Positions 4,151 through 57,337 of a stretch of DNA of 64,000 nt are shown in pieces. The DNA is taken from NCBI GenBank assembly GCA_965217585.1, contig OZ244561.1, forward strand, positions 288,001 through 352,000, in the 5' to 3' direction. The DNA comes from Candidatus Latescibacterota bacterium (lineage in GTDB: Bacteria; Latescibacterota; UBA2968; UBA8231). Every line of letters begins with the position of its first letter. The first letter of the stretch is position 1. Below the pieces are notes generated by a model. That model did no database searches, was not told the DNA's origin, and worked only from the letters and a program-made list of their open reading frames with translations. A program made the translations under genes and the position numbers.

Positions 4151-4836
4151 TCATCTAGACCCGCCAGTTGTATAATCGAAGAAGGCCAAGCCTCTATCTG
4201 AGATCCTGGCCTCACTCCTCTTCAGCGTCCCCAAGCGGATGCAGATCAATCGGCGTCAGAATCCCATAGAAACCGTATTTGATGCCCTGTCGATCCCCTT
4301 TCCCCGGAGGAAAGTACTCTTCTATAAGCGCCAATAATCGACGACCAAATTCGGCTGCCTGTTCTTCAGATAGTCGCGCGCGGTTGTGATTGACTGACAT
4401 CTGGAATCTCGAACCATATAAGCCCTCGGCAGCTTCGCGAGATGCTTGATTGAACTGGCTAACAACATCCGCTGGTATGGCCTCCGCAATTTGGTCATTC
4501 GCCGAACGGGTCTCTCGAACGCGAACTTTGCCTACCGCTGGCAAACAACGCCATTCTTGGGGATCGGCTCCATCTTCTGCCAAACGTACGACACCTGTTT
4601 GCGCCAGTCGTTGCAAGTGGTACAGCACCCGAGCATCGGTAACGTCCAACGTCTGCGAAATTTCCGCAACCGACTTCCCTTCTCCTAGGATTTCGAGAAT
4701 GCGCCAACGAAGCGGATCGGCGAGTACGTTCGCACGATCATCTTCGATAACGAGTACCGCGTCCTTTAAGGAGTTGGTCGGAAAGGTCAATTCACGCCAC
4801 GTACTCATTCAGACTCTCCAGTGTATAATCGAGGAA
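4151..4836. repeat. Imperfect 33-bp direct repeat (4151-4183 / 4805-4836) bracketing the wHTH gene
   Basis: TCATCTAGACCCGCCAGTTGTATAATCGAAGAA vs TCATTCAGACTCTCCAGT-GTATAATCGAGGAA, 27/33 identical. The second copy is the leader, RBS and ATG of the wHTH gene. Confidence 0.7.
4212..4808 (-). CDS. ArsR-like winged-helix regulator
   Basis: LADPLRWRILEIL...SVAEISQTL...VLYHLQRL. Confidence 0.8.
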   Translation of the reverse strand: MSTWRELTFPTNSLKDAVLVIEDDRANVLADPLRWRILEILGEGKSVAEISQTLDVTDARVLYHLQRLAQTGVVRLAEDGADPQEWRCLPAVGKVRVRETRSANDQIAEAIPADVVSQFNQASREAAEGLYGSRFQMSVNHNRARLSEEQAAEFGRRLLALIEEYFPPGKGDRQGIKYGFYGILTPIDLHPLGDAEEE

Positions 4837-4880
4837 TCCCCTATACCTGACATAGACGACGCGAGCTTCGACCTACTCAT

Positions 4881-5627
4881 TCAGGCATCCTTGGCTGGTG
4901 TGAAAGCCAACAGGATCGTGTCGGCAAACATGCGCCAGACGACAGCCACTTCATCAAACCCGGCCTCGATCATGGCGTCGATCATGTTCTCTGCGCTGTG
5001 TTCGTACTCGATATCCTGCCCAGCGGCCTTCATCGCTCGCTTGTACTCCACCCTAGCATCAATCTCTTGCTGAGTAGCTATCCCTGAAGCAACTGCGTCT
5101 TGGAGATGACGCTGGCGGAAGCGCGACGACTGCCGCCGAACACTTGCTCCCCAGTGAGGTCCGACCGACATCGCATCGTACAGGATGAAGCAACCACCCG
5201 GCCGGAGTGCGTCCTCGATCCGGGCAAAAAGTTCGGGTAGATCGGCCGGAGGAACGTGGTGAATGGTCTTGGCCGAGAAAACCACGTCACACTGCTGGAT
5301 ATCACAACCAATTATGTTCGCTTCCCGTACCTCGATCCGATCCGAATATAACGTCAGTTTCCGCCCAGCGAGCGCAAGCATCTCCGGTTCGCTGTCTATG
5401 CAGGTGCCGGTAGCGCGGCGGAAGTGTTCCAACACGCGCGCAGTTGGCTCCGCCGTACCACAGCCGAGTTCCACAAACTCGAATGAATCATCGGGATCGA
5501 AGGGAATCAGATCCACAATCATGTCCAAGCCTCTACTGTAAGGTGGACTTAAGACGGGCTGGAGCCGATCATACGAATCCGCAATCGTTGCGAAGTAACT
5601 GCGCCATTCAGGTAAAGATGAATCCAT
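4881..5627 (-). CDS. Class I SAM-dependent methyltransferase
   Basis: ELGCGTA, IDSEPEML, TIHH, LRPGGCF. Confidence 0.88.
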   Translation of the reverse strand: MDSSLPEWRSYFATIADSYDRLQPVLSPPYSRGLDMIVDLIPFDPDDSFEFVELGCGTAEPTARVLEHFRRATGTCIDSEPEMLALAGRKLTLYSDRIEVREANIIGCDIQQCDVVFSAKTIHHVPPADLPELFARIEDALRPGGCFILYDAMSVGPHWGASVRRQSSRFRQRHLQDAVASGIATQQEIDARVEYKRAMKAAGQDIEYEHSAENMIDAMIEAGFDEVAVVWRMFADTILLAFTPAKDA

Positions 5628-6548: not shown

Positions 6549-6552
6549 GGAT

Positions 6553-15907: not shown

Positions 15908-18283
15908 TCAATAGACCACTGAAATCACGCGCCGGACGCGCTGCTCATGCGCGTCTCCATCAAGGTGGAGTTCGAGCACGTAGAGGCCGGGCGGCACCAG
16001 TTGCCCTGCTTGATCGCGGCCGTCCCAAGTGAAGTGCTGAGCACCCGCAGTGACGGCTTGGGAGTGCTCGACGAGCGCGTGGCCGGCCAAGTCGTAGAGC
16101 CGCAGATGCCAAGGACGCGGTTCGAGGATGTTGATCACGTCGGCGCGGACGGCGAGCACATCGTTTATGCCGTCGCCGTTGGGCGTCAGCACCTCCGTGT
16201 CAAAGACGACGTTGAGCAGCAGGTCGCGGGCAACGGGCAGGCCGACGACATTGCTGCTGCTGGCAACTTGATCGGTAGCATCCCCGGGATCGACGCGCTG
16301 GCGGCTGGCGTCCTCGGTGCGAGCGTCTTGGATAAAAAGGACGAAGGGGGTGGACTGCTGGAAAACCTGTGCGGCGAAGCGCAATTCGACGAGATCGTCG
16401 TCGCGCAGCGGCTGGGGGAAGGTCACCGCAAAGCCAGCTTCGACCGGCTGGTCTGTGACCTCTAAGGGGGCGTCGTTGACCAAGGCACGGACAAAGCGCG
16501 TCGGCGTCGGCGTCTCCAAGACGAGGCGATCGAACCCAGATGCCCTAGTCTCGCGCGGGCGCAAGAAGAAGCGGAACTCGGTTTCCTCGCCCGGCAAAAC
16601 ATGGGTCGGGAAAATTTCGCTGACGGCGCGCTGGGATAGCGGATCGCTGAATGCAATGTTGAGTGCGTCGAGTTGGAGTGCCACCGATGGGGCTGCGGTG
16701 ACCATCCGCATCTGTAGCTGAGCGTAGCGGCGCGGCGAAGGCGACTGGAACTCCTGGCCTGAGAAGGCGTAGAGCTTGCTCCACGCGCTCCAGTCGCCGC
16801 CGATGACCTGGGAGGTATCGATCGGCCCCTTGAAGCTGGGAATCAGCTTGTCATAGCGCTTCTTGCTGACTTGCTTGCCGTTCTTGTCGTAGTAGGTGAG
16901 CAAGTTTTCGACTTCATTGCCAGAGCGGCTGCGTAATTCCAATCGGGTGCCCAGCGGGATGTCGGCCTCGTAGGATAGAGCGTTGAGGCTTTTTGGGCTT
17001 TGGAAGTCAATGATGTGCGAGCGAAATTTTAGGTTCTGCGGGAAGCCCTCACCGAACACCTGAAGCTCTTCGGCGAACCCCCGGAAAACCCAGCGATTAC
17101 TCGCGTCCCAGTTCTTCCACAACACCCGGATAAAGCGGGTGGGCACCAGCCCGAACTCGTGGGTGGCGGCACCAGTTACTTTTTTGACGTGTTCGCTAGC
17201 GGTGCCGGAATAGTACTTCTGCCAGATCAGGGTGCCATCGGGCGCTACGGAGCCGTCGGAACCGAGCACCTCGTAGAAATTGAACCCAAAGGAGCGCCGG
17301 GTGATGAAGAAGTCGATGACCCGGCCGCTGCCAGCGGTGATGCCGCCACCGGGCCGGGCAACTACGCCGCCGACGATTTTGAGTTTGTCGATAAAGTAGG
17401 TGGCACCCAGGTCGAGGACGATGTGCGAAAAGACGTCGCGCTCGGCTTGGATGGTGCGCCGCACAAACCAGCGGGTGGAGAGGTCGCCGTCGATGAGCAC
17501 TTGGATGTTGCCCAGCGGAATGAGGTCTTGAGTGACGAACGCATCGAGCACGACTTCGAGGTACCCGCCGCGTTCGAGCATCCCCAAGGCTATATTGTCG
17601 CCCAGCGCTTCGACCTCGACTTCGAGGAGACGGGTGTTCGGTTCGAGGGCGAGCAGATCCAAGCGCACGTACTGGATCGGCGTGTGGAAGGGCTGATCGA
17701 GTTCATAGGTAATCTCGTGGCGGGTGTTTTCCTTGAAGCGCTCGCGCCAGCGGTAGATGACGGTCCCGGCGATGGGGTTGTCCACCTCGTCAACGGCGTG
17801 TTCGCCAGTAGAGAGCAGCAGGTCAAAAAGCGACGGCGCAGGGCCTTGGGGATCAAAGATCAGCTTGACTCGGCGGGCGGAGACGCCCCGGCCCAAATCG
17901 ACCTCAATGGTCCAGTTTGCGGGGGGATCGTCCAGATGGGGGTGCCAGCCGGTGGAGCGATCGCCATCCATGACCAGCGGCGCGTCTCGTAGGTTGGAAC
18001 CAGCGCGGCGGATGCCGCCGCCAAAGGCCGCGGCATTGAGGACGGCATTGATGTCGCGGTGAACAGCGACGGGCTTGAGGGCACCCTGTGGGGTCAGCTC
18101 GACCGTGCCGGGTAGCGGCCAGGCCTGCCAGTCGCGGCGGGAGGCAAAGCGAATCTCGTCGGCACTCGCTGGGGGCACACTGAGAACGGCGCAGACAACC
18201 GCACATATAGCAATCCTGAATGATTGAACAATTCGAGATGCGGATCGTCTTGTTTCTACTATTCTGCGTCCTTCTGCGTCCAT
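15908..18283 (-). CDS. Secreted protein with discoidin-like modules and C-terminal FlgD Ig-like domain
   Basis: Signal-like N-terminus; TPNGDG...WDGRD..G..VPPGLY; paralog of 19435-21741; start uncertain because of an insert. Confidence 0.8.
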   Translation of the reverse strand: MDAEGRRIVETRRSASRIVQSFRIAICAVVCAVLSVPPASADEIRFASRRDWQAWPLPGTVELTPQGALKPVAVHRDINAVLNAAAFGGGIRRAGSNLRDAPLVMDGDRSTGWHPHLDDPPANWTIEVDLGRGVSARRVKLIFDPQGPAPSLFDLLLSTGEHAVDEVDNPIAGTVIYRWRERFKENTRHEITYELDQPFHTPIQYVRLDLLALEPNTRLLEVEVEALGDNIALGMLERGGYLEVVLDAFVTQDLIPLGNIQVLIDGDLSTRWFVRRTIQAERDVFSHIVLDLGATYFIDKLKIVGGVVARPGGGITAGSGRVIDFFITRRSFGFNFYEVLGSDGSVAPDGTLIWQKYYSGTASEHVKKVTGAATHEFGLVPTRFIRVLWKNWDASNRWVFRGFAEELQVFGEGFPQNLKFRSHIIDFQSPKSLNALSYEADIPLGTRLELRSRSGNEVENLLTYYDKNGKQVSKKRYDKLIPSFKGPIDTSQVIGGDWSAWSKLYAFSGQEFQSPSPRRYAQLQMRMVTAAPSVALQLDALNIAFSDPLSQRAVSEIFPTHVLPGEETEFRFFLRPRETRASGFDRLVLETPTPTRFVRALVNDAPLEVTDQPVEAGFAVTFPQPLRDDDLVELRFAAQVFQQSTPFVLFIQDARTEDASRQRVDPGDATDQVASSSNVVGLPVARDLLLNVVFDTEVLTPNGDGINDVLAVRADVINILEPRPWHLRLYDLAGHALVEHSQAVTAGAQHFTWDGRDQAGQLVPPGLYVLELHLDGDAHEQRVRRVISVVY

Positions 18284-18322
18284 CTGTGTCTATCTGCGGA
18301 TCATCGCATGAATGATTGAACA
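18217..18322. repeat. 78-bp insert containing four decamer repeats, flanked by a perfect 14-bp direct repeat
   Basis: TGAATGATTGAACA at 18217-18230 and 18309-18322; ATTCTGCGTC/CTTCTGCGTC/CATCTGTGTC/TATCTGCGGA at 18261-18300. Confidence 0.75.
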
Positions 18323-18339
18323 TTGCTTGGATTCAAACG

Positions 18340-19161: not shown

Positions 19162-19202
19162 CAAACCTACACAAGGAGACACTCATGGCCAAGATCAAGG
19201 AA
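19162..19202 (+). repeat. Duplicate of the RBS and first 6 codons of the 21851 dehydratase gene
   Basis: 39/41 identical to 21828-21868. Confidence 0.9.
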
Positions 19203-19434
19203 TACGGACCAGCGAACAACCTAGGCGGAATATCAAATCAAGAGACACTGCAAATTCACTGAGGAGATTGCCATTGTGGCCCAAGCCGCCGACGGCCGGC
19301 GGTAGGCGGCGGCGATATCGAGGCGCAGACGCGCCAAGTTCCCCTGCGAGCGAGTGCAGAAGCCTGCGACTTGTTAGGCTCCTTTTGCGCGTCCTATATT
19401 GGGGTATTGGCTTGGCTCAACCGGATAGACCCCC

Positions 19435-21741
19435 ATGCGCAACGCCATCCTCGTAAGTGCCCTAGTGCTCGCCACGCCCCTCGCGGGCGACCAACTCCGC
19501 ATCGCCACCTCGAACGACTGGCGCCAATGGCAACTGCCCGGCGACGCCGTCAAGGTCGCACGCGGTACGCTCAAACCCTCCTTTGTCCGCCGCAATATCA
19601 ACGCTGCCGCCAACGCCTTTGACTTTGCCAGCGGCGGCATCCGCAACGTGGGCTCCAACCCCGGCGACGCCCTCAAGCTCATCGATGGCGACCTAGCCAC
19701 CTATTGGGCTCCCGATCCGACCGCTAGCGTCGAGGATTGGTGGATCGAAGTCGATCTGGGGCGCGTCGTATCGGCGCGCAAAATTGAGCTCCACTTCGCC
19801 TCCGACAGCACCCCGCTGGAGTTTTTCAAAATCTTTACCTCCGACGGCGAGCCTTTCTTCAGCAATGCCAATTCCATTCTCCCCGGCACGCTGCGCTACA
19901 ACAAGCGCTGGCGCTATAGCTTTAACCAAGCACCCATCATCGAGATTGACTACCAGCTTAAGCCGCTCAAGAATATCCGCATCGAGGCCGACCTGCCCAC
20001 GGAGAATATCCGCCTGAGCGAGGTGGTAGTCGAGAGCATCGGCGACAACCTTTCGCTGGGGATTTGGGGCCGGGGGGGCAGCGTCGAAATCATCTCTGAG
20101 GTCACCTCTAAGCTCGGCCGCACCCTCACCGAGTCGAAAGGGATCAGCAATACCCTCGTCGATGGCGATATTACCACCTATTGGGGGACGGTGCATCGCG
20201 GCGGCGCAGGCACGCAGCCCGAACAGCAGATCGGACAGTTCAAGATTGACCTAGGTGCGCTGTATTGGGTGGACAGGGTGCGAATGCTCGGTGATCCCAG
20301 TGGCATCGCGCCTTCGGCGTCGTGCGGCGATTGTGGCCGGCATCGTCAATTCAACTACCTCTGGTACCAATTCTTCACGTCGGACGGCTCCCAGGCACCG
20401 GATGGCTCGCTGAGTTGGGAGCTGTTGGGCGAATTGCCCTCGGATCGCCGCAACCTAACACAAGTCCGCCATTTCCAAGAGCACTTCCCATTGCGCAAGG
20501 TTCGCCACGTGCGGCTGATCTTCCCCATGTCCGAGGGCTTCGAAGCCTTTAACGGCCGCATCGGCACCACGGCCGAGTGGCAGGTCTTCGGCGAAGGCCA
20601 CCCGGCCGCCGTGATGGCGCGCTCGCCGATTTACGACCTGGGCTCCATACAGCATATTGCGGAAATAGGCTGGGCCATCGACGCACCGCCGCAGACGCGC
20701 GTCGAAATCCGCAGCCGCACCGGCAACCTCCTCGACGATCAGCACATCTTTTACGATAAAAACGGCAAGCAAGTCACCGAGAAGAAATACGACAAGCTGA
20801 TCCCCAGCTTCCGAGGGGCCATCGACACCATCCGCACCGCTGGGGCCGACTGGAGCAACTGGAGCCGGGCCTACGCGACCTCCGGTCAGGTCTTCCTCTC
20901 CCCCGGCCCTCGGCGCTACGTGCAGTTGGAAGTTCACCTCCGCTCCGAAGACCCTTCCGCCACCGCGACCTTAGACGATATCGTCCTCGAATTCAATAAC
21001 CCACTGGCCCAACAGACGCGCGCCGAAGTCTTTCCCATCGAGGTCTCCCCCGGCGAAATGAACCAATTTACCTACTATCTTCGCTCCGACTTCGTCTCGT
21101 CCAGCCGGGGCTTTGATCAGATCCAACTGGCCTCCACCGCTGGGGCCACCTTCCGCGCGCTGCGCCTCGCCGGCGAGCCGGTCGCCCCCACCGTCGAAGC
21201 GACCGCAAATGGCTTCAAGATCCTCCTCGCTGAGCCGGTGCGCCGCTCGACCCTAATCGAAATCGACTTCGAGAGCATCCTCTATCTCAACCAGACCCGC
21301 TTCGAAGCCTTTCTCTTCAACAGCGCCTTGTCGACCACCGCGCGTCAACAGGTTGACCCCGGCGACGCCGAGGCCGCCATTGCCAGCGACCGGACCTTTG
21401 TCTCCTTGCCCACCGACGGGCGACTCTTTGCGGCCCTCTCGCTATCGAACCGGGTCCTAACTCCCAATGGCGACGGTATCTCAGACCGGTTGCAAATTGA
21501 CCTCGACCTGTTCAAAGTACTCGACCCCCGACCGGTCATCATCGGCGTCTATAACTTGACTGGCCACCGGGTCGCCCTCATCAGCGACGCGGCCACCACG
21601 GCCGGGCACCAGACCTATCAATGGGACGGACGCGACAGCCAAGGTCGCACCGTCGCACCCGGCATCTACATCCTCCGCGTCACGGCCGAGGGCGACGCGC
21701 TGACCCGCAGCGCAAATCGCCTGATCTCGGTAGTCTACTAA
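19435..21741 (+). CDS. Secreted protein with discoidin-like modules and C-terminal FlgD Ig-like domain
   Basis: Signal peptide; shares YDKNGKQV.xK.YDKLIPSF, SP.PRRY.QL, VDPGDA, TPNGDG and WDGRD with the 15908 gene. Confidence 0.85.
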   Translation: MRNAILVSALVLATPLAGDQLRIATSNDWRQWQLPGDAVKVARGTLKPSFVRRNINAAANAFDFASGGIRNVGSNPGDALKLIDGDLATYWAPDPTASVEDWWIEVDLGRVVSARKIELHFASDSTPLEFFKIFTSDGEPFFSNANSILPGTLRYNKRWRYSFNQAPIIEIDYQLKPLKNIRIEADLPTENIRLSEVVVESIGDNLSLGIWGRGGSVEIISEVTSKLGRTLTESKGISNTLVDGDITTYWGTVHRGGAGTQPEQQIGQFKIDLGALYWVDRVRMLGDPSGIAPSASCGDCGRHRQFNYLWYQFFTSDGSQAPDGSLSWELLGELPSDRRNLTQVRHFQEHFPLRKVRHVRLIFPMSEGFEAFNGRIGTTAEWQVFGEGHPAAVMARSPIYDLGSIQHIAEIGWAIDAPPQTRVEIRSRTGNLLDDQHIFYDKNGKQVTEKKYDKLIPSFRGAIDTIRTAGADWSNWSRAYATSGQVFLSPGPRRYVQLEVHLRSEDPSATATLDDIVLEFNNPLAQQTRAEVFPIEVSPGEMNQFTYYLRSDFVSSSRGFDQIQLASTAGATFRALRLAGEPVAPTVEATANGFKILLAEPVRRSTLIEIDFESILYLNQTRFEAFLFNSALSTTARQQVDPGDAEAAIASDRTFVSLPTDGRLFAALSLSNRVLTPNGDGISDRLQIDLDLFKVLDPRPVIIGVYNLTGHRVALISDAATTAGHQTYQWDGRDSQGRTVAPGIYILRVTAEGDALTRSANRLISVVY

Positions 21742-21850
21742 TGGATAAGCTCTTTAGATGTTGAGGCTGACGCCTCCCTAGGCGCTGGGGACCCGACCCA
21801 CAGGACGCCGTTTTGGCGCTCTAATCTCAAACCCACACCAGGAGACACTC

Positions 21851-26410: not shown

Positions 26411-26435
26411 GGAGATCAGGTTCCTCGTGCTGTTC

Positions 26436-33167: not shown

Positions 33168-33208
33168 AGTGTAGAATCTAAAGAATCAACCCATTAAATC
33201 CAAAATCC

Positions 33209-33268: not shown

Positions 33269-33311
33269 GCGCACGGTGACGCCTGTTGCGGGATAGGTTG
33301 ACAACGCGGCC

Positions 33312-43353: not shown

Positions 43354-43487
43354 CTGAACCTTGGCCATTCTGCGCCGATAAATCATTGGACGCATCGACT
43401 CGTGGAATGACAATGGCCGCTCAGTGTGTAAGATCGACGCGAGAAGCCGTGTTCCCGCGAACAATTCAGAGCCAAAGCTCCTCTTCC

Positions 43488-46400
43488 ATGAGCAACCAAA
43501 CCAACGAACAAGCCTTTGAAGCCCAAGTCGAGGCGACGCTCCTCGGGCCGGGCGGCTGGCATTGCGGCACCACCGCCGCGTGGGATGTCGAGCGCGCCCT
43601 CTTCCCTACTCAGGTCTGTACTTTCCTCGCCGAAACCCAGCCGACGCTGTGGGAACAGATGCGTGCCCTACACGGCGCTGGGCTTGAAGACCTGCTGATA
43701 GACGCGCTAGTCAAAGAACTCGACATCAAAGGCGCGCTGCACGTGCTGCGCCACGGCTTCAAGTTCTACGGCAAGACCTTCCGGCTAGCGTATTTCAAGC
43801 CTGCCCACGCGCTCAACGACGAAGTGCTGGCACTGTACGCGCAAAACAAGCTAACGGTCACGCGGCAAGTTCCCTGCCATCCCAATAAGCGCGATACAGT
43901 CGATCTGTTGTTCGCACTAAACGGGCTGCCCGTGGCGACCTGCGAACTGAAAAATCCCGGCACCGGCCAAAGCTGGCGGCAAGCCGTGCGGCAATACCAG
44001 GAAGACCGCGACCCACGCGCGCCGCTATTCAGTTTCAAGACGCGGGCATTAGTGCATTTCGCCGCCGATCCGGACGAAGTACACATGAGCACGCGCCTTA
44101 ACGGTGAAGACACGCGCTTCCTCCCCTTCAACCGAGGCAGCCACCCAGGCGAAGTACAATGCGGCGCAGGCAACCCGCAGCACACCTCGGGCTACCGCAC
44201 CGGCTATTTCTGGCAAGAAGTGCTGGAGCGCGACAGTTTCCTCGACATCCTCGGCCACTTCATGTTCGTCGAGAAGAAAGAAGAAAAGAGCGAAGACGAC
44301 CAAGGCAGTGCTCGGCGCATCGTCCACGAGACCATGATTTTCCCCCGCTATCACCAGCTCGACTCCGTACGGCAGCTAGTCGCCGCAGCGCGAGCAGACG
44401 GGGCCGGCCAGAATTATTTGGTGCAGCATTCGGCGGGCAGCGGCAAGACCAACAGTATCTCTTGGCTTTCACACCGCCTCGCCAGCTTGCACGACGACGA
44501 GGACCGCAAAGTCTTCGACTGCGTCGTCGTCATCACCGACCGCCGCGTGTTAGACCAGCAACTCCAAGACGCAATTTACCAGATCGAACACGCCCAAGGC
44601 GTAGTCAAGGCGATTGACCAAGACAGCCAGCAACTCGCCAGCGCCCTAATCGACGGCACCAAAATCGTCGTCACCACGCTCCAGAAATTCCCGTTCGTAT
44701 TGCGCGGGTTACTGCGCACCGCTGGGGCCGAGTCGCAGGAGGCCGCCACCGCCGAGGAGCGAGCGCAGGCTAAGGCTTGGGAAGCGGAAATCGGCAAGCG
44801 CCGGTATGCGGTGATTGTAGATGAGGCGCACTCCAGCCAGACCGGAGAGAGCGCACGGGAGCTCAAGGAGATTTTGGGCACAGGCACGGATGCCGAAGGC
44901 GAGCAGGACTGGGAAGACCGCCTAAACCAAGTGATGGCTTCGAGAGGCCGTCAGCCGAACTTGTCGTTTTTCGCCTTCACAGCCACCCCCAAAGGCAAGA
45001 CGCTAGAGCTGTTTGGCCGCCCCGGTGCCCGAGGTGTACCCGAAGCGTTCCACCTGTACAGCATGAGGCAGGCCATTGAGGAAGGCTTCATCCTCGACGT
45101 GCTCTCGAACTACACGACCTACAACGTCTATTACCGGCTGCTCAAAAACGCGGAGGACGACCCGAACCTGCCAAAGAAGAAGGCGGCCCGCGCTCTAGCG
45201 AAGTTCGCAAGCTTTCACCCTCATAACATCGAGCAGAAGACCGAGGTAATCGTCGAGCACTTCCGCAATAAGGTGCGGCATCGGCTAGATGGTCGCGCCA
45301 AGGCCATGGTAGTCACTGCATCGCGGCTACACGCCGTACGCTACAAACTCTCCTTCGAGCGCTACATAGAGGAGAAAGGCTATGCGGACATCCGTCCGCT
45401 CGTCGCCTTCAGCGGCACCGTACGCGACCCCGATACCGGCCTTGAATACACGGAGCCGGGCATGAACGTGGATGTCGTCACCGGCAAGCCCATCAGCGAA
45501 GCGGCGCTGCCCGACCGCTTCGACTCACCCTCCTACCAAGTGCTGCTAGTTGCGAACAAGTACCAGACGGGCTTTGATCAGCCGCGCCTATGCGCGATGT
45601 ACGTGGACAAGCGGCTCGACGGGGTACAGGCCGTGCAGACGCTCTCGCGGCTCAACCGCACGGCTCCGGGTAAGGACGCTCCGTTCGTGCTCGATTTCGT
45701 CAACAATGCCGAAGACATCTTGAATGCCTTCAAGCCGTATTACGACAAGACCGAGGTAGTAGAGGCGTCTGACCCTTCGAGGCTAGAGGCCCTAAAACAC
45801 GAACTCGACCAAGCACAGGTCTACTACTGGAGTGAGGTCGAGAAGTTCGCCGGGGTGTTCTACAAAGCCCCCGAGGACCAAAGGCCTAGCGATCACGCCG
45901 ACATGCAAAAGTGCCTCCAGCCAGCCATAACTCGCTTCACCGCAATCGAGCAAGACGACGCCCGCGACCAGTTCCGCGACAAACTCTCCGGCTACGTAGG
46001 ACTATACGCTTACTTGAGTCAGATCGTCCCCTACGGCGACCCAGACCAAGAAATGCTTTACAGCTATGGGCACTTTCTACTACCGCACCTGCCTCTCGAC
46101 CGCGACGACGCAGTTGTCAAGCTAGGCAGCGAAGTCGCTCTCCAGTACTACCGACTGGAGCGCGTTTCCTCGGGGCCGATACATGTGGCGGAAGGCGATC
46201 CTCAGTACGTCAGACCCCCGACCGAGGTCGGCACTGGCCGGGCACAGGACCCCAAGGCTCCCCTGTCGGAGATCATCGAGGTGCTGAACGAACGCTTCGG
46301 GACGCAGTTTGATGAAGTGGATCGGCTCTTTTTTCAGCAGATCAAGGAAAAAGCCTGCAACGACGAAACCGTAGTAGAGACGGCGCGCGCCAATCCGCGT

Positions 46401-46589
46401 GACCGGTTCGAGTTGGGAATCAAGAGCCGCCTCGACGAATTAATGATCGAGCGCATGAGCGAGAACGACCAGATCGCGGAGCGCTACCTGTCGGACGAAA
46501 CGTTTCGGAGTTTGGCCCTGCCCATCCTCGCGCAGGCCATATTCGAGGACCTACAGACGAAAGATGCGGATACACCCGCGCCGAAATAA
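43488..46589 (+). CDS. hsdR: Type I restriction endonuclease subunit R
   Basis: D..NGLP...ELKN, QHSAGSGKT, TTLQKF, DEAHSSQ, FTATPK, QTGFDQP, QTLSRLNR. Confidence 0.95.
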   Translation: MSNQTNEQAFEAQVEATLLGPGGWHCGTTAAWDVERALFPTQVCTFLAETQPTLWEQMRALHGAGLEDLLIDALVKELDIKGALHVLRHGFKFYGKTFRLAYFKPAHALNDEVLALYAQNKLTVTRQVPCHPNKRDTVDLLFALNGLPVATCELKNPGTGQSWRQAVRQYQEDRDPRAPLFSFKTRALVHFAADPDEVHMSTRLNGEDTRFLPFNRGSHPGEVQCGAGNPQHTSGYRTGYFWQEVLERDSFLDILGHFMFVEKKEEKSEDDQGSARRIVHETMIFPRYHQLDSVRQLVAAARADGAGQNYLVQHSAGSGKTNSISWLSHRLASLHDDEDRKVFDCVVVITDRRVLDQQLQDAIYQIEHAQGVVKAIDQDSQQLASALIDGTKIVVTTLQKFPFVLRGLLRTAGAESQEAATAEERAQAKAWEAEIGKRRYAVIVDEAHSSQTGESARELKEILGTGTDAEGEQDWEDRLNQVMASRGRQPNLSFFAFTATPKGKTLELFGRPGARGVPEAFHLYSMRQAIEEGFILDVLSNYTTYNVYYRLLKNAEDDPNLPKKKAARALAKFASFHPHNIEQKTEVIVEHFRNKVRHRLDGRAKAMVVTASRLHAVRYKLSFERYIEEKGYADIRPLVAFSGTVRDPDTGLEYTEPGMNVDVVTGKPISEAALPDRFDSPSYQVLLVANKYQTGFDQPRLCAMYVDKRLDGVQAVQTLSRLNRTAPGKDAPFVLDFVNNAEDILNAFKPYYDKTEVVEASDPSRLEALKHELDQAQVYYWSEVEKFAGVFYKAPEDQRPSDHADMQKCLQPAITRFTAIEQDDARDQFRDKLSGYVGLYAYLSQIVPYGDPDQEMLYSYGHFLLPHLPLDRDDAVVKLGSEVALQYYRLERVSSGPIHVAEGDPQYVRPPTEVGTGRAQDPKAPLSEIIEVLNERFGTQFDEVDRLFFQQIKEKACNDETVVETARANPRDRFELGIKSRLDELMIERMSENDQIAERYLSDETFRSLALPILAQAIFEDLQTKDADTPAPK

Positions 46590-46772: not shown

Positions 46773-48581
46773 ATGAGACTGCTACATTACCTAGAGCTAC
46801 AAAACTTCAAGCGCTTTGGCGACAGACAGCGCATTGAGTTGGATCATCCGTCCGTGCTCATCGGCCCAAACAACTGCGGCAAAACGACGGCCATACAGGC
46901 CATCGCACTCTGGTCACAAGCCGTCAAAACTTGGTTGGAAAACAAAGGCACAGCACCGCCCAAAGAGCGGACATCAACATCAATCAACCGGCTCAATATC
47001 GTCTCGGTGCCCGTGCAGCGTACGCGCTACTTCTGGCACAACATGGCCGTTCGCACCGGCAACCACGACATCTACTTTCATATCACCCTAGGCGTCTTAC
47101 ACGAGCACAAAGTCGAGCCTGTCACCATGCGCTTCCGTAATCAGGGCAACGAATTGGTCTATTGCACACCCGACGAATCAACGCTCAAAAGGCCAGAACT
47201 CATCGAAACAGCCGCCGAATTCAATGTCAAGTTGCTATACCCCATGTCGGGTCTCGATACTGAAGAAGCCGTTTTACAGCCCGGACGAATAGACGTATTG
47301 CTCGGCCAGGGGCAAACGGCGCAAGTGCTCCGTAACCTTTGCTTGACTGTATTCCAAAACGCGCCCAAAGATTGGGAAAAGATCGTTGATCTGATGAAGC
47401 GTTTGTTTACAGTTGATCTTGAAAATCCGAAAGAGACTACACGCGGCAGCATTGATCTGTTCTATCGGCAATCTCATGTCAAGGATCGGTTAGATGTGTC
47501 ACTTGCTGGACGTGGACTTCAGCAGATGCTCCTAATCGTCGCCTACCTGTATTCTGATCAGCGCAACGTCCTTCTAATCGACGAGCCAGACGCCCACCTC
47601 GAAATCCTGCGCCAAAAACAGATCTACGTATTGTTGCGCGAAATCGCCACCGAGAGAGAGTCGCAAATCATACTCGCTACGCATTCTGAGGTAGTCTTAG
47701 AGGAAGCGCGCGATCACAACCTCACACTGCTGTTGCAGGGACGGGCCGACGACCTCGCGGCAAAGAAGGACATCCTCAATACACTCAAACACTACGGGAC
47801 CGAACATTACATCCGGGCACAGCAGCGGGGCTACGTGCTCTACGTGGAGGGAAGCACAGATATCGATATCCTACGGGCGTTAGCAAAACAACTGAATCAC
47901 AAGGCAGAAAGCGTTTGGGACGAGCGCGCCAACGCATTCTACGTAAAAAACACCTTCCCGAGGGCCAGCTTGAACTCAGAACTCGAGCGCGTGGAAGGTG
48001 GCTTCGACGCAATGCCGGAGCAACATTTCTTCGCGCTGCGGCCTATGGTGCCTCACCTAAGAGGATTGGCGATCCTCGATAACGACGGCCGAGAGCGGAA
48101 GGACTCGGATGAAGGAGGACTTCAGATCGCCTACTGGCGTCGCTATGAAGCGGAGAACTATTTTATCACGCCAGACGTGTTGCGAAACTACGTTGCGGAA
48201 CAATACCAAGATCTAACGCTCTTTGACGGGTTTCAGAGACAGACCAACGAAGTCCTAGACGAATTGATCCAAGACCGTGTTTTTGACGGTAGCCAGAGTG
48301 ATTTCACTACATGGCGCGATACAAACGAGGACGCGAAACGGCTCTTGTGGGAAACACGAACCGAGCGATTGAAGCTGAGCGACTTTGCCGAAGAATTCTT
48401 TCGACGTCTCGCAGAGAAGCTCAGACACGCTATGCTGCTCAGGAAAGGCGAACTCCATCACCTTATCCACTTCGCTGATCCCGCCACGATCCCCAAAGAG
48501 GTGAGCGAAAAACTCGACTTGCTGCAAAAACTCTTTGAGCAAGCTAACCGAGGTGAGGAAGAGTCGGGAGAGCCTGAATGA
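46773..48581 (+). CDS. ABC-ATPase + TOPRIM-like (OLD-family-like) protein
   Basis: GPNNCGKT, AGRG, IDEPDAHL, ATHS, YVEGSTD, LDND, EAENY. Confidence 0.82.
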   Translation: MRLLHYLELQNFKRFGDRQRIELDHPSVLIGPNNCGKTTAIQAIALWSQAVKTWLENKGTAPPKERTSTSINRLNIVSVPVQRTRYFWHNMAVRTGNHDIYFHITLGVLHEHKVEPVTMRFRNQGNELVYCTPDESTLKRPELIETAAEFNVKLLYPMSGLDTEEAVLQPGRIDVLLGQGQTAQVLRNLCLTVFQNAPKDWEKIVDLMKRLFTVDLENPKETTRGSIDLFYRQSHVKDRLDVSLAGRGLQQMLLIVAYLYSDQRNVLLIDEPDAHLEILRQKQIYVLLREIATERESQIILATHSEVVLEEARDHNLTLLLQGRADDLAAKKDILNTLKHYGTEHYIRAQQRGYVLYVEGSTDIDILRALAKQLNHKAESVWDERANAFYVKNTFPRASLNSELERVEGGFDAMPEQHFFALRPMVPHLRGLAILDNDGRERKDSDEGGLQIAYWRRYEAENYFITPDVLRNYVAEQYQDLTLFDGFQRQTNEVLDELIQDRVFDGSQSDFTTWRDTNEDAKRLLWETRTERLKLSDFAEEFFRRLAEKLRHAMLLRKGELHHLIHFADPATIPKEVSEKLDLLQKLFEQANRGEEESGEPE

Positions 48582-48847
48582 AGATTACACTCACGCCTGA
48601 TATGGAGCGCACGTTGATCAAGCAGGCTCGCAAGTTGGGTATTACTCCTGAACAGCTCGTCGTGGATAGCTTGAAGGAGCGTCTCGCGTCGGCATCGGCC
48701 GTGCCAGAGTCACAAGGAACGCTGGCAGATTTTCTCCATGAGCATATCGGCGTTTTAGATAGCCGCGAATACATCCCCGGCGGTGCGCGTATGTCGGAAG
48801 ATAGTGGCAAGAAATTCGCCGCGGGATTGCTCAAACAACATCGATAG
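48578..48847 (+). CDS. Small antitoxin-like protein with no adjacent toxin
   Basis: ITLTPDMERTL..QARKLG.TPE ribbon-helix-like N-terminus; coupled to the upstream gene. Confidence 0.55.
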   Translation: MKITLTPDMERTLIKQARKLGITPEQLVVDSLKERLASASAVPESQGTLADFLHEHIGVLDSREYIPGGARMSEDSGKKFAAGLLKQHR

Positions 48848-48855
48848 AGCACGGG

Positions 48856-49116
48856 ATGAAAAAACACCATCAAATAACCGGATTGCACTTTGACGGGGAT
48901 TGCATGGTTTTGACTATCGATGGTCAAGAAAAAACCTTTCGCGTGAGCGAAATATCCCCTGCGCTGCAAAATGCGTCCGACGAAAAAAAGAACCTCTTTG
49001 AAATCTCTCCTTCGGGCTACGGTATCCACTGGCCACTACTCGACGAAGATCTGTCCATTGACGGATTGCTCGGCGTCGTTCACAGGCCTGAAAAGAAAAA
49101 AGCTCCTCTCCTATGA
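48856..49116 (+). CDS. DUF2442 protein (copy 2)
   Basis: Near-identical to the 40323 copy. Confidence 0.88.
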   Translation: MKKHHQITGLHFDGDCMVLTIDGQEKTFRVSEISPALQNASDEKKNLFEISPSGYGIHWPLLDEDLSIDGLLGVVHRPEKKKAPLL

Positions 49117-49170
49117 GCGAGCAGACCAACGAACAAGCCTTTGAAGCCTAAATCGAGGCGACGCTCCTCG
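49113..49170 (+). pseudogene. Duplicate of the first 19 codons of hsdR, with an internal stop
   Basis: 53/58 nt identical to 43488-43545; MSEQTNEQAFEA*IEATLL. Confidence 0.9.
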
Positions 49171-49722
49171 CTAGAAAATCTCGTTTAAGCCAACGGAGAA
49201 ACCTGTGAGCGTGGACGAGGTCATCGCTTGCCCCTCGCCGTAGATGGCCTCCACCTCGAAGGCACCCTCGCCGAGCCGCAGCACCGTCACCGTCCGGGCG
49301 TCTGAATCGACTAGCCAGTATTCCTTCACGCCATACTTGGCGTACAGGGCGCGTTTGAGCGTCCGATCCCGCCCGGCAGTGGAGGGGGACAGGATTTCGA
49401 CGACCAAATCCGGTGCACCGAGGACATTCGCGCCGCCGAGCAGCAGGTGCGCTCGCTCATTGGAGACGAACAATAGGTCCGGCTGTACCACATCCGTATT
49501 CGACAGCACCACGTCGCAGGGCGCGTGGAAGACCTCGCCTAAACCCCTCTCCTGTACGAAACCATGGAGCAACGCTCCTAGCCGGATGCCAATTCTCTGG
49601 TGCTCTAGGTTGGGCGCGGGAGCCATAATCAACTCTCCGTCCAATAACTCGTAGCGCTTGTCCTCCGGGGTATGTTGGTAGTCCTCATAGGTGAACTTGA
49701 CGGCTGGGTTGGGGCTGAGCAT
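49171..49722 (-). CDS. Uma2-family (PD-(D/E)XK) endonuclease
   Basis: YELLDGEL...QPDL...PDLVVEILSPST...YAKYGVKEYW. Confidence 0.92.
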   Translation of the reverse strand: MLSPNPAVKFTYEDYQHTPEDKRYELLDGELIMAPAPNLEHQRIGIRLGALLHGFVQERGLGEVFHAPCDVVLSNTDVVQPDLLFVSNERAHLLLGGANVLGAPDLVVEILSPSTAGRDRTLKRALYAKYGVKEYWLVDSDARTVTVLRLGEGAFEVEAIYGEGQAMTSSTLTGFSVGLNEIF

Positions 49723-49838
49723 ATCGCCCTCCTCTCGTCGCTGGATGTGCGGTTTACGGACGCCTAAATGCCGGTCAACCAACTACCAATAATCTAACCA
49801 CCTCCGCCCTACTCGGCGGGCCGTTGCATAAGGGCCAT

Positions 49839-53388: not shown

Positions 53389-54283
53389 AGGTGCGCTGCG
53401 CAAAAATCTGACGCCGTACTATTTCTTGCTGCCGGCGATTCTGGTCTTGGCGGTGGTCATCCTCTATCCGGTGTTCAGCAATCTCGTGATGAGCGTCTAC
53501 AAGGTGAAGCTCTTCCGCGGAGCCGGCGACGAGTTCATCGGCCTTACCCACTACGCCAAGCTCTTCGGCAGCCGCACCTTTGTCAACAGCATCTGGAGTT
53601 CGGTGCGCTTTACGCTCTATTCCCTGCCGGTGGCCTTCGTCTTGGGCTTGGGGATGGCGTTGATCTTCAACGAGATCCGCAAGTATCGGCCGGTCTTTAC
53701 CGGCTTTCTGCTCATCCCTTGGGCCATCGCCCCAGTAGTGACCGGCTACATGTGGCGCTGGCTGTTCCACGACAGCTTCGGCCTCGTCAATCATACGCTC
53801 CTGAGCCTCGGCTTCATCGACGCCAATGTCCCTTGGCTAGCGCAGCCGGACACGGCTATCGGCGCAGTGGTGGTGGCCAATGTCTGGCGCTTCATGCCCT
53901 ACATCACCATCATGCTGCTGGCCGGTTTGCAGGGTGTATCCTCCGAGCTGTACGAGGCCGCGCACGTCGATGGAGCCAATGTGTTCGAGCGCTTCTTCCA
54001 CGTGACCCTGCCGCAGCTCAAACACGTAATCGGAGTGGTCTTCCTCTTCGCCACCATCTGGATGGTCAATGACTTCGCGCTAATTTTTATTATGACCGAG
54101 GGCGGCCCGGCCAAGGCCACGCAAGTGGTGCCGATTACGGTCTATCGCATCGCCTTCGAGCACCTGCGGCTCGGCAAGGGCGCGGCCGCGGCACTCATTC
54201 TGCTGCTCTTTTTGCTGTCGTTGAGCATCGTCTTCATCCGCATGCTCTTCCGCGAGGAGAGGAGGAGCGGGGATGCGAATTAA
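53378..54283 (+). CDS. Sugar ABC permease (MalF-type)
   Basis: EAA loop LYEAAHVDGA; TEGGP. Confidence 0.93.
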   Translation: MITKGALRKNLTPYYFLLPAILVLAVVILYPVFSNLVMSVYKVKLFRGAGDEFIGLTHYAKLFGSRTFVNSIWSSVRFTLYSLPVAFVLGLGMALIFNEIRKYRPVFTGFLLIPWAIAPVVTGYMWRWLFHDSFGLVNHTLLSLGFIDANVPWLAQPDTAIGAVVVANVWRFMPYITIMLLAGLQGVSSELYEAAHVDGANVFERFFHVTLPQLKHVIGVVFLFATIWMVNDFALIFIMTEGGPAKATQVVPITVYRIAFEHLRLGKGAAAALILLLFLLSLSIVFIRMLFREERRSGDAN

Positions 54284-54320
54284 GGCCCAAGAAAATGACA
54301 GAAGGAGGATGCGCCGATGA
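54273..54320 (+). other. Relic start of the downstream MalG-type permease, now a 15-codon mini-ORF
   Basis: GAGGAG then ATG, reading MRIKAQEN... vs MMSIPIKTQEN at 56489 (16/18 nt); its TGA overlaps the WD40 ATG. Confidence 0.7.
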
Positions 54321-56476
54321 ACAAGACCCGGTTGTCCCACGTCATCTTCTTAGTCGTCTGTGCCTTATGGGTGCAGAGCAGTCTCGCCCAAGACTACACC
54401 CCTTGGAGTTTGCCCGCAGAGGCCCCCGCCCGCTCGGGCAAAGCGAGCACCGGTGCGGGCGACCAAACGGCGGCTAGCCGCGTTGGCGTCTGGCTCGACG
54501 ATACGAACACCAGTGCTGAAATCGCTCTATTCACAGGCCATACGGATTTTGTGACTTCCGTGGCGTTTTCGCCGGATGGAACCACCCTCGCCAGTGCTAG
54601 TTCGGACGGCACAGTACGGCTGTGGAACGTAGCATCAGGACAACTGGTAAAAACCTTAGCGCATACGGATCATGTGATTTCCGTGGCGTTTTCGCCAGAT
54701 GGAACCACCCTCGCCAGTGCTAGTGCCAGTGGGAACGGCACGGTGCGGCTGTGGAACGTCGAATCTGGACAACTGGTAACCTCCTTAGAGCATACAGATT
54801 ATGTCTCTTCCGTAGTGTTCTCGCCGGATGGAACCACCCTCGCCAGTGCCAGTGCCAGTGCCAGTGGGAACGGCACGGTGCGGCTGTGGAACGTCGAATC
54901 TGGACAACTGGTAAACACACTCACAGGACATACGGGTCATGTCTTGTCCGTGGCGTTTTCACCGGATGGAAACACTCTCGCCAGTGCCGGTTGGGAAATG
55001 GTGCGGCTGTGGAACGTAGCATCAGGACAACTGGTAAAAACCTTAGCGCATACGGATCATGTGATTTCCGTGGCGTTTTCGCCGGATGGAAACACTCTCG
55101 CCAGTGCCGGTGAGGACCGCACAGTACGGCTGTGGAACGTCGAATCTGGACAACGGATAAACACCTTAGAGCATACGAATGATGTCTTGTCCGTGGCGTT
55201 TTCGCCGGATGGAAATACCCTCGCCAGTGCCAGTTGGGAAACGGTGCGGCTGTGGAACGTCGAATCTGGACAACGGATAAACACCTTAAAGAATACTTGG
55301 TATTGGGTCAATTCCGTGGCGTTCTCACCGGACGGGACCCTCGCCAGTGGTAATGGGGACGGCACGGTGCGGCTGTGGAAGGTGGAATCAGGACAATGGT
55401 TAACCTCCTTAGAGCATACGGATTATGTTTCTTCCGTGGCATTCTCACCGGATGGAACCACCCTCGCTAGTGCCAGTTGGGACGGCACAGTACGGCTGTG
55501 GGATGTGGTATCAGGACAACAGGTAACCTCCTTAGAGCATACGGATTATGTCTTGTCCGTGGCGTTTTCGCCCGATGGAAACACCCTCGCCAGTGCCAGA
55601 GGGAAAACGGTGTGGCTGTGGGATGTGGTATCAGGACAACGGATAAAGTCCCTCACAGGCCATACGGATTATGTATATTCCGTGGCGTTTTCGCCCGATG
55701 GAAACACTCTCGCCAGTGCCGGTCATGACGACACAGCGCGGCTGTGGAACGTGGCATCAGGACAACTGGTATACACCTTAGAGCATACGGATTATGTCTC
55801 TTCTGTGGCGTTCGCGCCGGATGGAAACACCTTCGCCAGTGGCAGTGCCGGTGCCAGTGAGGACCGCACGGTGCGGCTGTGGAACGTGGCATCAGGACAA
55901 CTGGTAAACTCCCTCACAGGCCATCATGTCTTGTCTATGGCGTTCTCACCGGATGGAACCACCCTCGTCAGTGGCAGTTACGATGGCACGGTGCGGCTGT
56001 GGGATGTGGCATCAGGACAACTAGTAAACACAATCACAGGCCATACGGATCATGTCTTTTCCGTGGTGTTCTCACCGGATGGAATCACCCTCGCCAGTGC
56101 CAGTCGGGACGGCACAGTGCTACTATGGGATATGTCGCCTTACATCACTCCCTCTGAACCGACGGCGATTCAATCTTCAGCACCGCACTTGTCACCAGCC
56201 GTCAGCGGCCTAGAGCCCAATTATCCCAATCCGTTCAACGCCAGCACCTATCTTATCTATCGTATAGCCACCCCCGGCGCGGTGCGGCTGAAGATTTACA
56301 ACACCTTGGGGCAGCCGGTGCGCACCCTCGTGGATCAATACCAGCCCACTGGCTTCTACCAAGTCGCCTGGGATGGCCGCAACCAGCGCGGGGCAGCGGT
56401 GGCCGCGGGCGTCTATCTGACGCGGCTTTTCTATCCCGGCGGCGAGCAGACCCGCCGGATGCTCTTGCTCAAGTAA
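54317..56476 (+). CDS. Secreted WD40-repeat protein with FlgD/CTD tail
   Basis: Signal peptide, 13 F(S/A)PDG repeats, NYPNPFN...WDGRN. Confidence 0.93.
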   Translation: MNKTRLSHVIFLVVCALWVQSSLAQDYTPWSLPAEAPARSGKASTGAGDQTAASRVGVWLDDTNTSAEIALFTGHTDFVTSVAFSPDGTTLASASSDGTVRLWNVASGQLVKTLAHTDHVISVAFSPDGTTLASASASGNGTVRLWNVESGQLVTSLEHTDYVSSVVFSPDGTTLASASASASGNGTVRLWNVESGQLVNTLTGHTGHVLSVAFSPDGNTLASAGWEMVRLWNVASGQLVKTLAHTDHVISVAFSPDGNTLASAGEDRTVRLWNVESGQRINTLEHTNDVLSVAFSPDGNTLASASWETVRLWNVESGQRINTLKNTWYWVNSVAFSPDGTLASGNGDGTVRLWKVESGQWLTSLEHTDYVSSVAFSPDGTTLASASWDGTVRLWDVVSGQQVTSLEHTDYVLSVAFSPDGNTLASARGKTVWLWDVVSGQRIKSLTGHTDYVYSVAFSPDGNTLASAGHDDTARLWNVASGQLVYTLEHTDYVSSVAFAPDGNTFASGSAGASEDRTVRLWNVASGQLVNSLTGHHVLSMAFSPDGTTLVSGSYDGTVRLWDVASGQLVNTITGHTDHVFSVVFSPDGITLASASRDGTVLLWDMSPYITPSEPTAIQSSAPHLSPAVSGLEPNYPNPFNASTYLIYRIATPGAVRLKIYNTLGQPVRTLVDQYQPTGFYQVAWDGRNQRGAAVAAGVYLTRLFYPGGEQTRRMLLLK

Positions 56477-56488
56477 TAGGCCCTACGA

Positions 56489-57337
56489 ATGATGTCTATT
56501 CCGATTAAAACCCAAGAAAATATCCGCGCCTATCTCGCCTACGGCTTGGGCACGGTCTTTGTCCTCGCGCTGGTGCTGCCGCTGATATGGGTAGTCACGA
56601 CTTCGGTGCGTCCCCTGTCCGAGATGACGCAGACGCCGCCTTTGGTCTTTCCGCGCTCGGTCACTTTCAGCGCCTATGTCGATATGTGGGACACCGGGCC
56701 GTTTGTGAAGTACTTTGCCAACAGCATGGTGATTTCCCTTTCGACGGCCCTGATTGCCCTCGCGTTTAGCATCTGCGCGGCGTATGCCTTTGCCCGCTTC
56801 CGCTTTCGCGGCAACACCTTGTTGCTGATGGTAGTGGTGATGTCGCAAATGCTGCCCGGCTCTTCGATCCTCATCCCGCTCTTTCAGGTGATTCGCTCGT
56901 TCGGCTTGCTCGACACGCACGTGGGCATGGTGCTGATCTACACGGGCTTTGCCATCCCCTTTTGCACTTGGCTGCTCAACGGCTATTTCCGCGCCATTCC
57001 TACAGATCTAGAGCAGGCCGCGCTCATCGACGGCTGCAACCGCCTCCAGCTACTCTACCGGATCGTCTTGCCGCTGGCCGCACCGGCAATCGTAGCAGTG
57101 GGGACCTTTGCGTTTTTGCTTTCGTGGAATGAATTCTTGTTCGCTTTTGTGTTTACCAAATCGCAGGCCCTAACCATTCCGGTGGGGCTGCGCGCCGCGT
57201 TTTTGGGCCAATACGTCAACAAATACGACCAGCTATTCGCCGCGTCGCTAATTTTTAGCCTGCCGCCAATCGCGCTCTTTGTGGGGTTGCAGCGGTATTT
57301 TGTCCAGGGACTGACGGCTGGTGCCGTAAAGGGATAA
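56489..57337 (+). CDS. Sugar ABC permease (MalG-type)
   Basis: LEQAALIDG, WNEFLFA, QRYFVQGLTAGAVKG. Confidence 0.93.
   Translation: MMSIPIKTQENIRAYLAYGLGTVFVLALVLPLIWVVTTSVRPLSEMTQTPPLVFPRSVTFSAYVDMWDTGPFVKYFANSMVISLSTALIALAFSICAAYAFARFRFRGNTLLLMVVVMSQMLPGSSILIPLFQVIRSFGLLDTHVGMVLIYTGFAIPFCTWLLNGYFRAIPTDLEQAALIDGCNRLQLLYRIVLPLAAPAIVAVGTFAFLLSWNEFLFAFVFTKSQALTIPVGLRAAFLGQYVNKYDQLFAASLIFSLPPIALFVGLQRYFVQGLTAGAVKG

Follow-up and report, generated by a model that had tools for sequence, protein, structure and literature searches.

Most horizontally gained bacterial genes lie in hot spots that carry no recognizable mobility gene, and the route by which they first enter is largely unknown. Here we describe blocks of genes that lie between direct copies of a gene terminus, one copy joined to an intact gene and the other left as a dead stub, in a 64,000-nucleotide (nt) stretch of an uncultured Candidatus Latescibacterota genome (GenBank assembly GCA_965217585.1, contig OZ244561.1) and elsewhere in that genome. 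The stretch, called the window throughout, comprises positions 288001 to 352000 of a single closed 7,323,734-bp contig without N.

Several described systems leave comparable traces. Integrative elements, such as phages and islands with attachment (att) sites in tRNA or protein genes, can carry a substitute gene end, and the sites described here are similar in that the direct repeats comprise a gene terminus, the gene is intact, and the copies are less than 100% identical; integrative elements, however, depend on an integrase encoded nearby and on an att core that does not vary, and neither was found here. Integration hot spots and minimal mobile elements hold different cassettes in one slot between conserved genes, exchanged by flanking homology. 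Two sites in the window (malF/malG and RspA) resemble such hot spots, with slots that lie within an operon and at a leader, and to our knowledge the hot-spot and minimal-mobile-element concept does not include terminus duplications.

In insertion with long target duplication, restriction-modification (RM) genes lie between direct repeats longer than 30 bp that are present as a single copy in the empty genome (Furuta et al. 2010). Such insertions were reported for RM genes only, at 9 of 760 locus pairs and in some further cases judged from context, most of them in species with natural competence. Fusion of genes at junctions was noted, and breakage of DNA by the RM enzymes was suspected, the mechanism being unknown. 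The scars described here share with these insertions a variable repeat length, the lack of any other mobile element, and gene fusion at the junction, and they match that class; they are not the undescribed mechanism that a preliminary description of this DNA had proposed. Unlike the insertions of Furuta et al., most of the cargo is not RM related (metabolic, toxin-antitoxin, WD40, and SusCD genes), and there are dozens of scars in one genome. New here are the frequency of the scars, the non-RM cargo, and a junction pinned to the stop or start codon.

A displacement resembling homology-facilitated illegitimate recombination (HFIR) has also been proposed already for orphaned 3' ends at type VI secretion system (T6SS) loci, and the same idea is cited for Rhs genes (Kirchberger et al. 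2017, PMC5361080). T6SS/Rhs C-terminal displacements are alike in that a homology-anchored block takes over and the resident 3' end is orphaned downstream without an integrase, and their arrays build by repeated events. The displaced ends at those loci are variable toxin tips with immunity genes, whereas here both ends encode the same housekeeping terminus, the cargo consists of separate genes, and 5' ends are affected too. Transformation can yield duplications when an insertion would destroy an essential gene (Johnston et al. 2013, PMC3784515), and such merodiploidy likewise makes duplications by recombination of incoming DNA, although these are 100 to 900 kb long and bordered by insertion sequences (ISs), unlike those found here.

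Gene blocks between copies of a gene terminus

Each scar consists of a block of one to ~10 genes between direct copies (18 to ~320 nt) of the target terminus. The gene-joined copy keeps the gene intact, and the other copy is a dead stub in the native flank. The preliminary description had listed six such loci in the window, and four of them are borne out (at the RspA-like, DUF6785, hsdR, and malG-like genes), whereas the pairs at the winged helix-turn-helix (wHTH) gene and the FlgD_ig gene are not. Its broader observation, that cargo sits at gene boundaries without a linked integrase while the host gene stays whole and a copy of its terminus is left behind, also stands. Chance was rejected as an explanation for the four loci and for the genome-wide set described below, and it may account for the wHTH pair. 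Coordinates are collected in Table 1; this genome is designated G000, other G numbers denote relatives, and the genus comparison drew on 30 searchable genomes, of which many are single contigs.

At the RspA-like site a 41-nt repeat (19162-19202 and 21828-21868, 95% identity) spans a 23-nt leader containing the ribosome-binding site (RBS), the ATG, and five codons, and encloses a 2.6-kb cargo block with a gene for a secreted F5/8-type-C protein. Among the 30 genus genomes, the flanks abut with a single copy of the repeat in 7 (sequence inspected in 2), the same cargo is present in 5, and other DNA occupies the site in at least 7; in G010 both repeat copies surround a different cargo. At least 10 relatives have a "home" copy of the F5/8 cargo (window 19369-21750) at another locus, within an operon; the next gene there overlaps its end, and ~11 nt of that gene came along with the inserted copy. 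The RspA leader has two natural alleles at empty sites, and G035 carries one of them on the stub and the other on the gene.

Two further observations concern this site. G001 has two copies of a ~116-nt module made up of 75 nt and the RspA leader (L060, G001:C1:5372600-5379000, about 2004-2150 and 4776-4887), each copy behind a cargo block, resembling a small cassette array. In this genome a 184-nt remnant (92% identity) is all that is present of the 5' part of the F5/8 cargo at positions 3993382 to 3993564 (L068), and it may be a decayed home copy.

The repeat between the malF-like and malG-like genes is only 18 nt long with 2 mismatches (54279-54296 and 56504-56521) and is insignificant by itself; it is established by 7 of 18 genus genomes that lack the cargo, in which the two genes abut, overlapping by 11 nt (the alignments share 17 nt; sequence inspected in 3). 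The working malG-like gene has its ATG supplied by the WD40-repeat-like tail of the cargo. In other species the malF/malG junction holds other inserts, one of which duplicates ~250 to 270 nt of the malF end with the last codons altered, and 17 of 19 differences in the malF-end duplication of G013 fall at the third codon position. The first five codons of the malG-like gene (within window 56477-56503) resemble a WD40 repeat unit (81% to repeat family D6), giving a rebuilt permease N terminus.

The preliminary description had raised the concern that stubs are chimeras of co-assembled strains, and the genome is indeed judged to be metagenome derived, its relatives being metagenome-assembled genomes. 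This explanation has a negligible probability: the sequence is a closed contig, the junctions recur in assemblies of other species (WD40/malG in G014, the RspA cargo in 5 genomes, and repeat pair case 3 of the screen below in G001 and G005), and contigs of three sequencing runs, X19 and X21 (both with 0 differences) and X23, bridge 56476 to 56504. These read-level data are Logan contigs, which are short and uninformative on rare variants. One X23 contig has a joint jumping back 259 positions, from 54275 to 54017, which probably stems from a relative with a malF-end duplication.

A genome-wide excess of junctions at stop codons

When the whole genome was compared with itself by BLAST in chunks, 5421 direct local hits resulted. 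Isolated short repeats (20 to 160 nt, within 10 kb) make up 242 of them, and 182 of these are present in no more than 3 copies in the genome; inserts are all below 10 kb by design of the screen. Repeat pairs from this screen carry case numbers (3, 68, 124, 173, 175, and 193), and L001 to L028 are the loci of the end type, in which the 3' end of a gene is copied. A boundary lies -6 to +10 nt from the stop codon of a long open reading frame (ORF) in 21 of the 182 repeats, versus 4.4 ± 2.2 expected (500 local position shuffles, maximum 15), so that the excess over shuffled positions called for in the preliminary description is present at stop codons; it is not significant at starts, as detailed below. 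The offset histogram has 18 repeats in the bin from 0 to +5 nt and at most 6 in any other 6-nt bin. The junction is held at 0 to +5 nt past the stop in 8 cases with a native spacer of at least 50 nt (50 to 650 nt). A simple insertion anywhere in a short spacer, followed by a later event, was considered and rejected, because the junction still lies at 0 to 5 nt where spacers are long. By loose criteria 39 repeats touch a 3' end and 29 a 5' end, in lists that overlap and include some misclassified pairs; the strict end-type repeats are 31 to 319 nt long (n = 24). At end-type loci the stub is always downstream of the gene, and the cargo tightly fills the gap.

Cargo-free alleles, which the preliminary description had predicted, were found in at least one relative at 9 of 10 loci examined, 8 of them repeat flanked and with a single copy at the empty site. 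For case 3 the site is empty in 5 of the 30 genus genomes and the filled junction is also found in G001 and G005; for case 173 an empty site with a single copy is present in 4 of the 30, and empty sites were found for case 124 in G001, case 193 in G005, and case 68 in G011. Two sites (malF/malG and RspA) hold different cargo in different species. The case 3 stub and the sequence following it match the native downstream sequence of empty sites, and at both the malG and case 3 sites the stub plus its outer flank represents the native context. The case 3 stub has decayed in relatives, with 5 substitutions in G001 and an internal deletion in G005.

Set beside the defining features of insertion with long target duplication, repeats exceed 30 bp at the RspA (41 nt), hsdR (72 nt), and DUF6785 (~110 nt) sites and in the 24 strict cases, the malG repeat being shorter, and the empty site has a single copy at the 8 repeat-flanked loci, though not for case 175. 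The inserts are below 20 kb and carry no mobility gene of their own (55 end-type cargo ORFs scanned), apart from an IS630-like element in L013. Only the GmrSD, methyltransferase, and hsdR loci loosely qualify as insertions of restriction and modification genes.

Cargo and the scarcity of mobility genes

Cargo families include DAO, 2-hydroxyacid dehydrogenase, GFO/IDH, radical SAM, SusC/D, redoxins, GmrSD, and methyltransferases, together with HNH, Uma2, PemK, HepT/MNT, DUF433/DUF5615, and DUF4160. A Pfam scan covered 55 of 111 cargo ORFs, those of the end-type loci, the other 56 being start-type cargo ORFs outside the scan. The only mobility matches among the 55 were the DDE_3 and HTH ORFs of the L013 element, which is missing from the same cargo in G002 and G013, and no recombinase common to the loci was found among them. 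No common junction motif was seen in 21 pairs inspected by eye, no formal motif search having been made. ComEC is present in the closed genome and Ku was not found in it. Selection for cotranscription of the cargo was considered and rejected; by our own reading of the listed loci, orientation is mixed, with about half of the cargo co-oriented with the target gene.

These observations bear on whether the scars are made by site-specific integration, either by a recombinase acting in trans at att-like sites or by integrative elements that brought a replacement gene end and then decayed. Two repeat pairs in the genome (3360777/3369735 and 3362434/3365569) do adjoin a tyrosine recombinase gene at 3359651. 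As a general cause, however, this is refuted by the lack of a shared core and is very improbable: the repeat is different at every locus, its length ranges between 18 and 319 nt, some cargo measures only ~0.1 to 1 kb, and the IS630-like ORFs of L013 are the only mobility genes in the scanned cargo. The 7.3-Mb genome has 5 tyrosine recombinases and a single reverse transcriptase, all outside the window, in agreement with the preliminary description, which had noted no integrase, recombinase, or reverse transcriptase there. The region at genome positions 3359651 to 3369832, where the two pairs (98 and 107 nt) adjoin the recombinase gene, is probably a classical integrative element, separate from the integrase-free scars.

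Favored route and divergence of the copies

We favor, with moderate confidence, the reading that gene blocks were inserted at the termini of conserved genes without a recombinase, by homology-anchored terminus displacement, and that the stubs are the resulting scars. Incoming DNA, whether it stems from a related lineage or from elsewhere in the genome, would recombine by homology inside the target gene terminus, and its other end would be joined illegitimately slightly further inside the gene; the incoming homologous terminus would take over and the native one would be displaced, as in HFIR. Homology between the two contexts would stop at the stop codon or RBS, and the repeats are proposed to end there because homology between lineages with different neighboring genes ends there. 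Only short repeats would persist, since long ones would delete the cargo by ordinary recombination, and repeat-by-repeat deletion could regenerate empty sites. Cassettes once formed could spread between species by homologous recombination in flanking genes and so give rise to hot spots. Of the routes listed in the preliminary description, the best fit is the third, in which DNA of sibling lineages enters by homology-facilitated illegitimate recombination. Classical nonhomologous end joining is unlikely because Ku was not found.

In 32 end-type pairs, mismatches between gene-linked copy and stub number 35, 26, and 95 at codon positions 1, 2, and 3 (95 of 156 at the third), with 83 synonymous versus 57 nonsynonymous codons; for orthologues the corresponding differences are 132, 148, and 570 (16, 17, and 67%). 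Because the mismatches are mostly at third positions, the copies are likely to have diverged mainly as working genes, and the stop-pinned junction together with this bias argues for recombination between two gene contexts rather than copying in place. The gene reads through the gene-linked copy in register, and any microhomology is inseparable from the repeat edge.

A long target duplication made in situ is possible, if less probable. A staggered break or a replicative template switch at the gene boundary would capture DNA, often copied from the same genome, so that the terminus is copied twice, and differences would arise later by stub decay and allelic replacement. Several pairs are indeed identical (46, 35, 37, and 53 nt at 100%), cargo has home copies elsewhere, some within the same genome (G001 and G040; DAO), and stubs have decayed in G001, G005, and G007. 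In situ duplication gives no reason, however, for a 0- to 5-nt junction with spacers of 50 to 650 nt or for the sharp histogram peak, and the 61% of mismatches at third positions exceeds the ~43% estimated (our own arithmetic) for neutral decay of a stub beside a constrained gene.

Several findings weigh against terminus displacement, and some of them favor in situ duplication directly. In the gene-linked malG copy the native ATG is missing and an ATG of the cargo serves in its place, which resembles a plain staggered duplication. The F5/8 cargo originates in the middle of an operon with no RspA homologue adjoining. For case 3 a stub-free donor context was not found in the 30 genus genomes; target gene and DAO adjoin in G000, G001, and G005 alone, and in each of these the stub is present, DAO is at a different home locus in 15 of the 30, and the case 3 copies are identical in G000. 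Relatives are as close or closer to the gene-linked copy than to the stub (cases 68 and 193, and malF in G002 and G007), on few differences, and the third-position bias could also result from replacement of the gene by a foreign allele after in situ duplication. Start-type repeats number 17 versus 9.7 ± 3.0 (maximum 18 in 300 shuffles), which is not significant with crude start calls. Finally, case 175 has no clean empty site in 5 genomes examined; three relatives have the cargo beside the other flank and no stub.

A further reading, which we regard as rather unlikely, is a systematic, enzyme-independent gain of genes in sponge-type Latescibacterota in which the junction is set by the boundary between translated and untranslated sequence itself, in the manner of an "integron without integrase" stacking cassettes behind duplicated leaders or gene ends. 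The stop codon or RBS would be the point of breakage or switching, for example at R-loops or stalled forks where ribosome cover ends. It is left open because of the 0- to 5-nt pinning regardless of spacer length, the gene-precise units cut out of operons, and the repeated leader modules of G001.

Composite loci and loci of other origin

At the DUF6785 locus an insertion and a later deletion are superimposed. The three end copies are real (32533-32642, 33207-33316, and 33310-33419; 60% and 76% identical to the reference, and the last two sharing 41 nt at 100%). Stub A, an old one, is kept as a stub in many relatives (79 to 83% identity); in 8 relatives a nucleotidyltransferase module separates it from the 3' end of paralogue 2, and G001 has neither module nor stub A. 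Most relatives have two tandem DUF6785 paralogues, and the body of paralogue 2 (81% identity) is deleted in this genome; stub B, proposed earlier as another terminus copy, is the leftover of that later deletion.

Stub B thus exemplifies exactly what would be expected if the stubs were leftovers of tandem paralogues or duplicated units that had been mostly deleted, with nothing inserted at the boundary. The hsdR stub, which follows a second DUF2442 copy like part of a repeated unit, conforms as well, and such remnants would likewise end at a stop codon and differ mainly at third positions. As a general account this is unlikely and holds only locally: at the 8 repeat-flanked loci the relatives' flanks abut with one copy and no paralogue, and the native outer context holds the stub, not a full gene.

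The hsdR start copy is also real (43474-43545 and 49099-49170, 72 nt at 90%), although it does not record one simple insertion as first thought, being part of a larger interrupted repeat. The DUF2442 copies (40323-40555 and 48856-49088) match over 233 nt at 90.6%, the second directly 5' of the hsdR stub, and 14 nt of the hsdR leader occur three times. Many different arrangements are found in relatives, and the locus is a multievent mosaic that could not be reduced to one event. Uma2 occupies another slot in nine genus genomes, between AhpC-like and 394-amino-acid genes, and in G001 it ends with 23 nt of the hsdR stub though no hsdR is there. The IS5-like (40791-41968) and IS630-like (38709-39874) elements both have 100% identical copies elsewhere in the genome, and contigs of three runs join 40782 to 41969, representing forms without the IS5-like copy. 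An AhpC/TSA ORF at window 49839-50147 covers only profile positions 48 to 123 of 124 and may be 5' truncated.

The wHTH and FlgD pairs have other explanations than a terminus copy. The right junction of the toxin-antitoxin module next to the wHTH gene (4212-4808) is exactly that gene's stop codon, and four of five relatives lack the module, completely in G002, G011, and G001 (gap of 54 to 66 nt) and nearly so in G005, but no convincing flanking duplication was found there. The similarity between the copies at 4151 and 4805 is weak (~36 nt with gaps, local score 23, reached by 1.6% of 3000 random pairs with the same spacing), and since the DUF433 ORF begins at 4105, the 4151 copy does not coincide with a start codon. 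The 14-mer at 18217 and 18309 is an internal or subterminal repeat of an element of ~125 nt that BLAST matches 24 times within this genome and dozens of times in G013, G002, and G001. This element (18206-18327), with terminal inverted repeats visible in aligned copies, is missing from the orthologous site in G011 and G001 and has the attributes of a miniature inverted-repeat transposable element (MITE), being short, noncoding, and multicopy, so the sequence comparison assigns the 14-mer to a candidate MITE and not to a terminus duplication. It lies in the 5' end region of the secreted F5/8/FlgD_ig gene, whose annotated ATG (18283) is inside the element.

By Pfam annotation the window is a mixture of genes for sugar-acid metabolism, for secreted repeat proteins, and for ABC transporters, along with a defense island (AAA_15 ATPase, DUF2442 pairs, hsdR, Uma2, and two IS elements). 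A further scar straddles the left edge of the window; its stub is at 1029-1096, and its cargo, a restriction gene of the GmrSD type, comprises two ORFs (by Pfam, with GmrSD_C at window 544-951). Two tandem FG-GAP repeat genes at window 23089-26671 share 79 to 91% identity along most of their sequence, a sign of recent duplication in tandem.

Table 1. Features of the window at loci with proposed terminus copies (window positions)
Feature	Position	Strand	Remark
Stub of an upstream gene	1029..1096	+	69 nt, 90% identical to the 3' end (genome 286934-287002) of a 387-aa (amino acid) gene just upstream of the window
Inserted toxin-antitoxin module	3445..4211	-	DUF433 ORF 3875-4105 and DUF5615/PIN-like ORF 3513-3875
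MITE-like dispersed element	18206..18327	.	Terminal inverted repeats; contains or abuts both 14-mer copies
RspA-like stub R1	19162..19202	+	Native leader, ATG, and 5 codons of the RspA-like gene
RspA-site cargo	19203..21827	+	F5/8-type-C/FlgD_ig/CHU_C secreted-protein gene (19435-21741) plus short flanks
R2 joined to intact RspA-like gene	21828..23059	+	R2 21828-21868; enolase-superfamily gene 21851-23059
DUF6785 stub A	32533..32642	-	Displaced 3' end of DUF6785/DUF6784 paralogue
Nucleotidyltransferase cargo	32793..33167	-	Polbeta/NTP_transf_2, MNT-like
DUF6785 stub B	33207..33316	-	Last ~100 nt of tandem paralogue 2
Intact DUF6785/DUF6784 gene	33312..35312	-	
Repeat copy 1 at hsdR locus	40323..40580	+	DUF2442 gene a, then first copy of hsdR leader
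IS5-like element	40791..41968	+	100% identical copies elsewhere in genome
hsdR with leader	43474..46589	+	R1 43474-43545; ATG 43488
ATPase, small ORF, and DUF2442 gene b	46773..49116	+	AAA_21/AAA_15 ATPase 46773-48581; 89-aa ORF 48578-48847; DUF2442 gene b 48856-49116
hsdR 5' stub R2	49099..49170	+	TAA at codon 13; abuts Uma2 gene stop codon
Uma2 gene	49171..49782	-	
malG-like stub	54273..54296	+	Native start (ATG 54273, 8 codons) overlapping malF-like stop; R1 54279-54296
malG-site cargo	54317..56503	+	WD40-repeat gene (54317-56476) plus 27-nt WD40-repeat-like tail
malG-like permease gene	56489..57337	+	R2 56504-56521; first 5 codons cargo derived

Implications

Long target duplication, the sole described signature of such insertions, was known from a small number of cases linked to RM genes. 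In this genus there are dozens of scars per genome and ~30 genomes, many of them closed, with empty, filled, and differently filled alleles, a variety that makes the mechanism testable by comparison of donor contexts, allele phylogenies, and junction rules. There are consequences for annotation too, as stubs create false short ORFs, altered N and C termini (the malG start, and the malF end in relatives), and fragments that pass for paralogues. In this uncultured sponge-type bacterium, a type of scar that is known but poorly understood is common.

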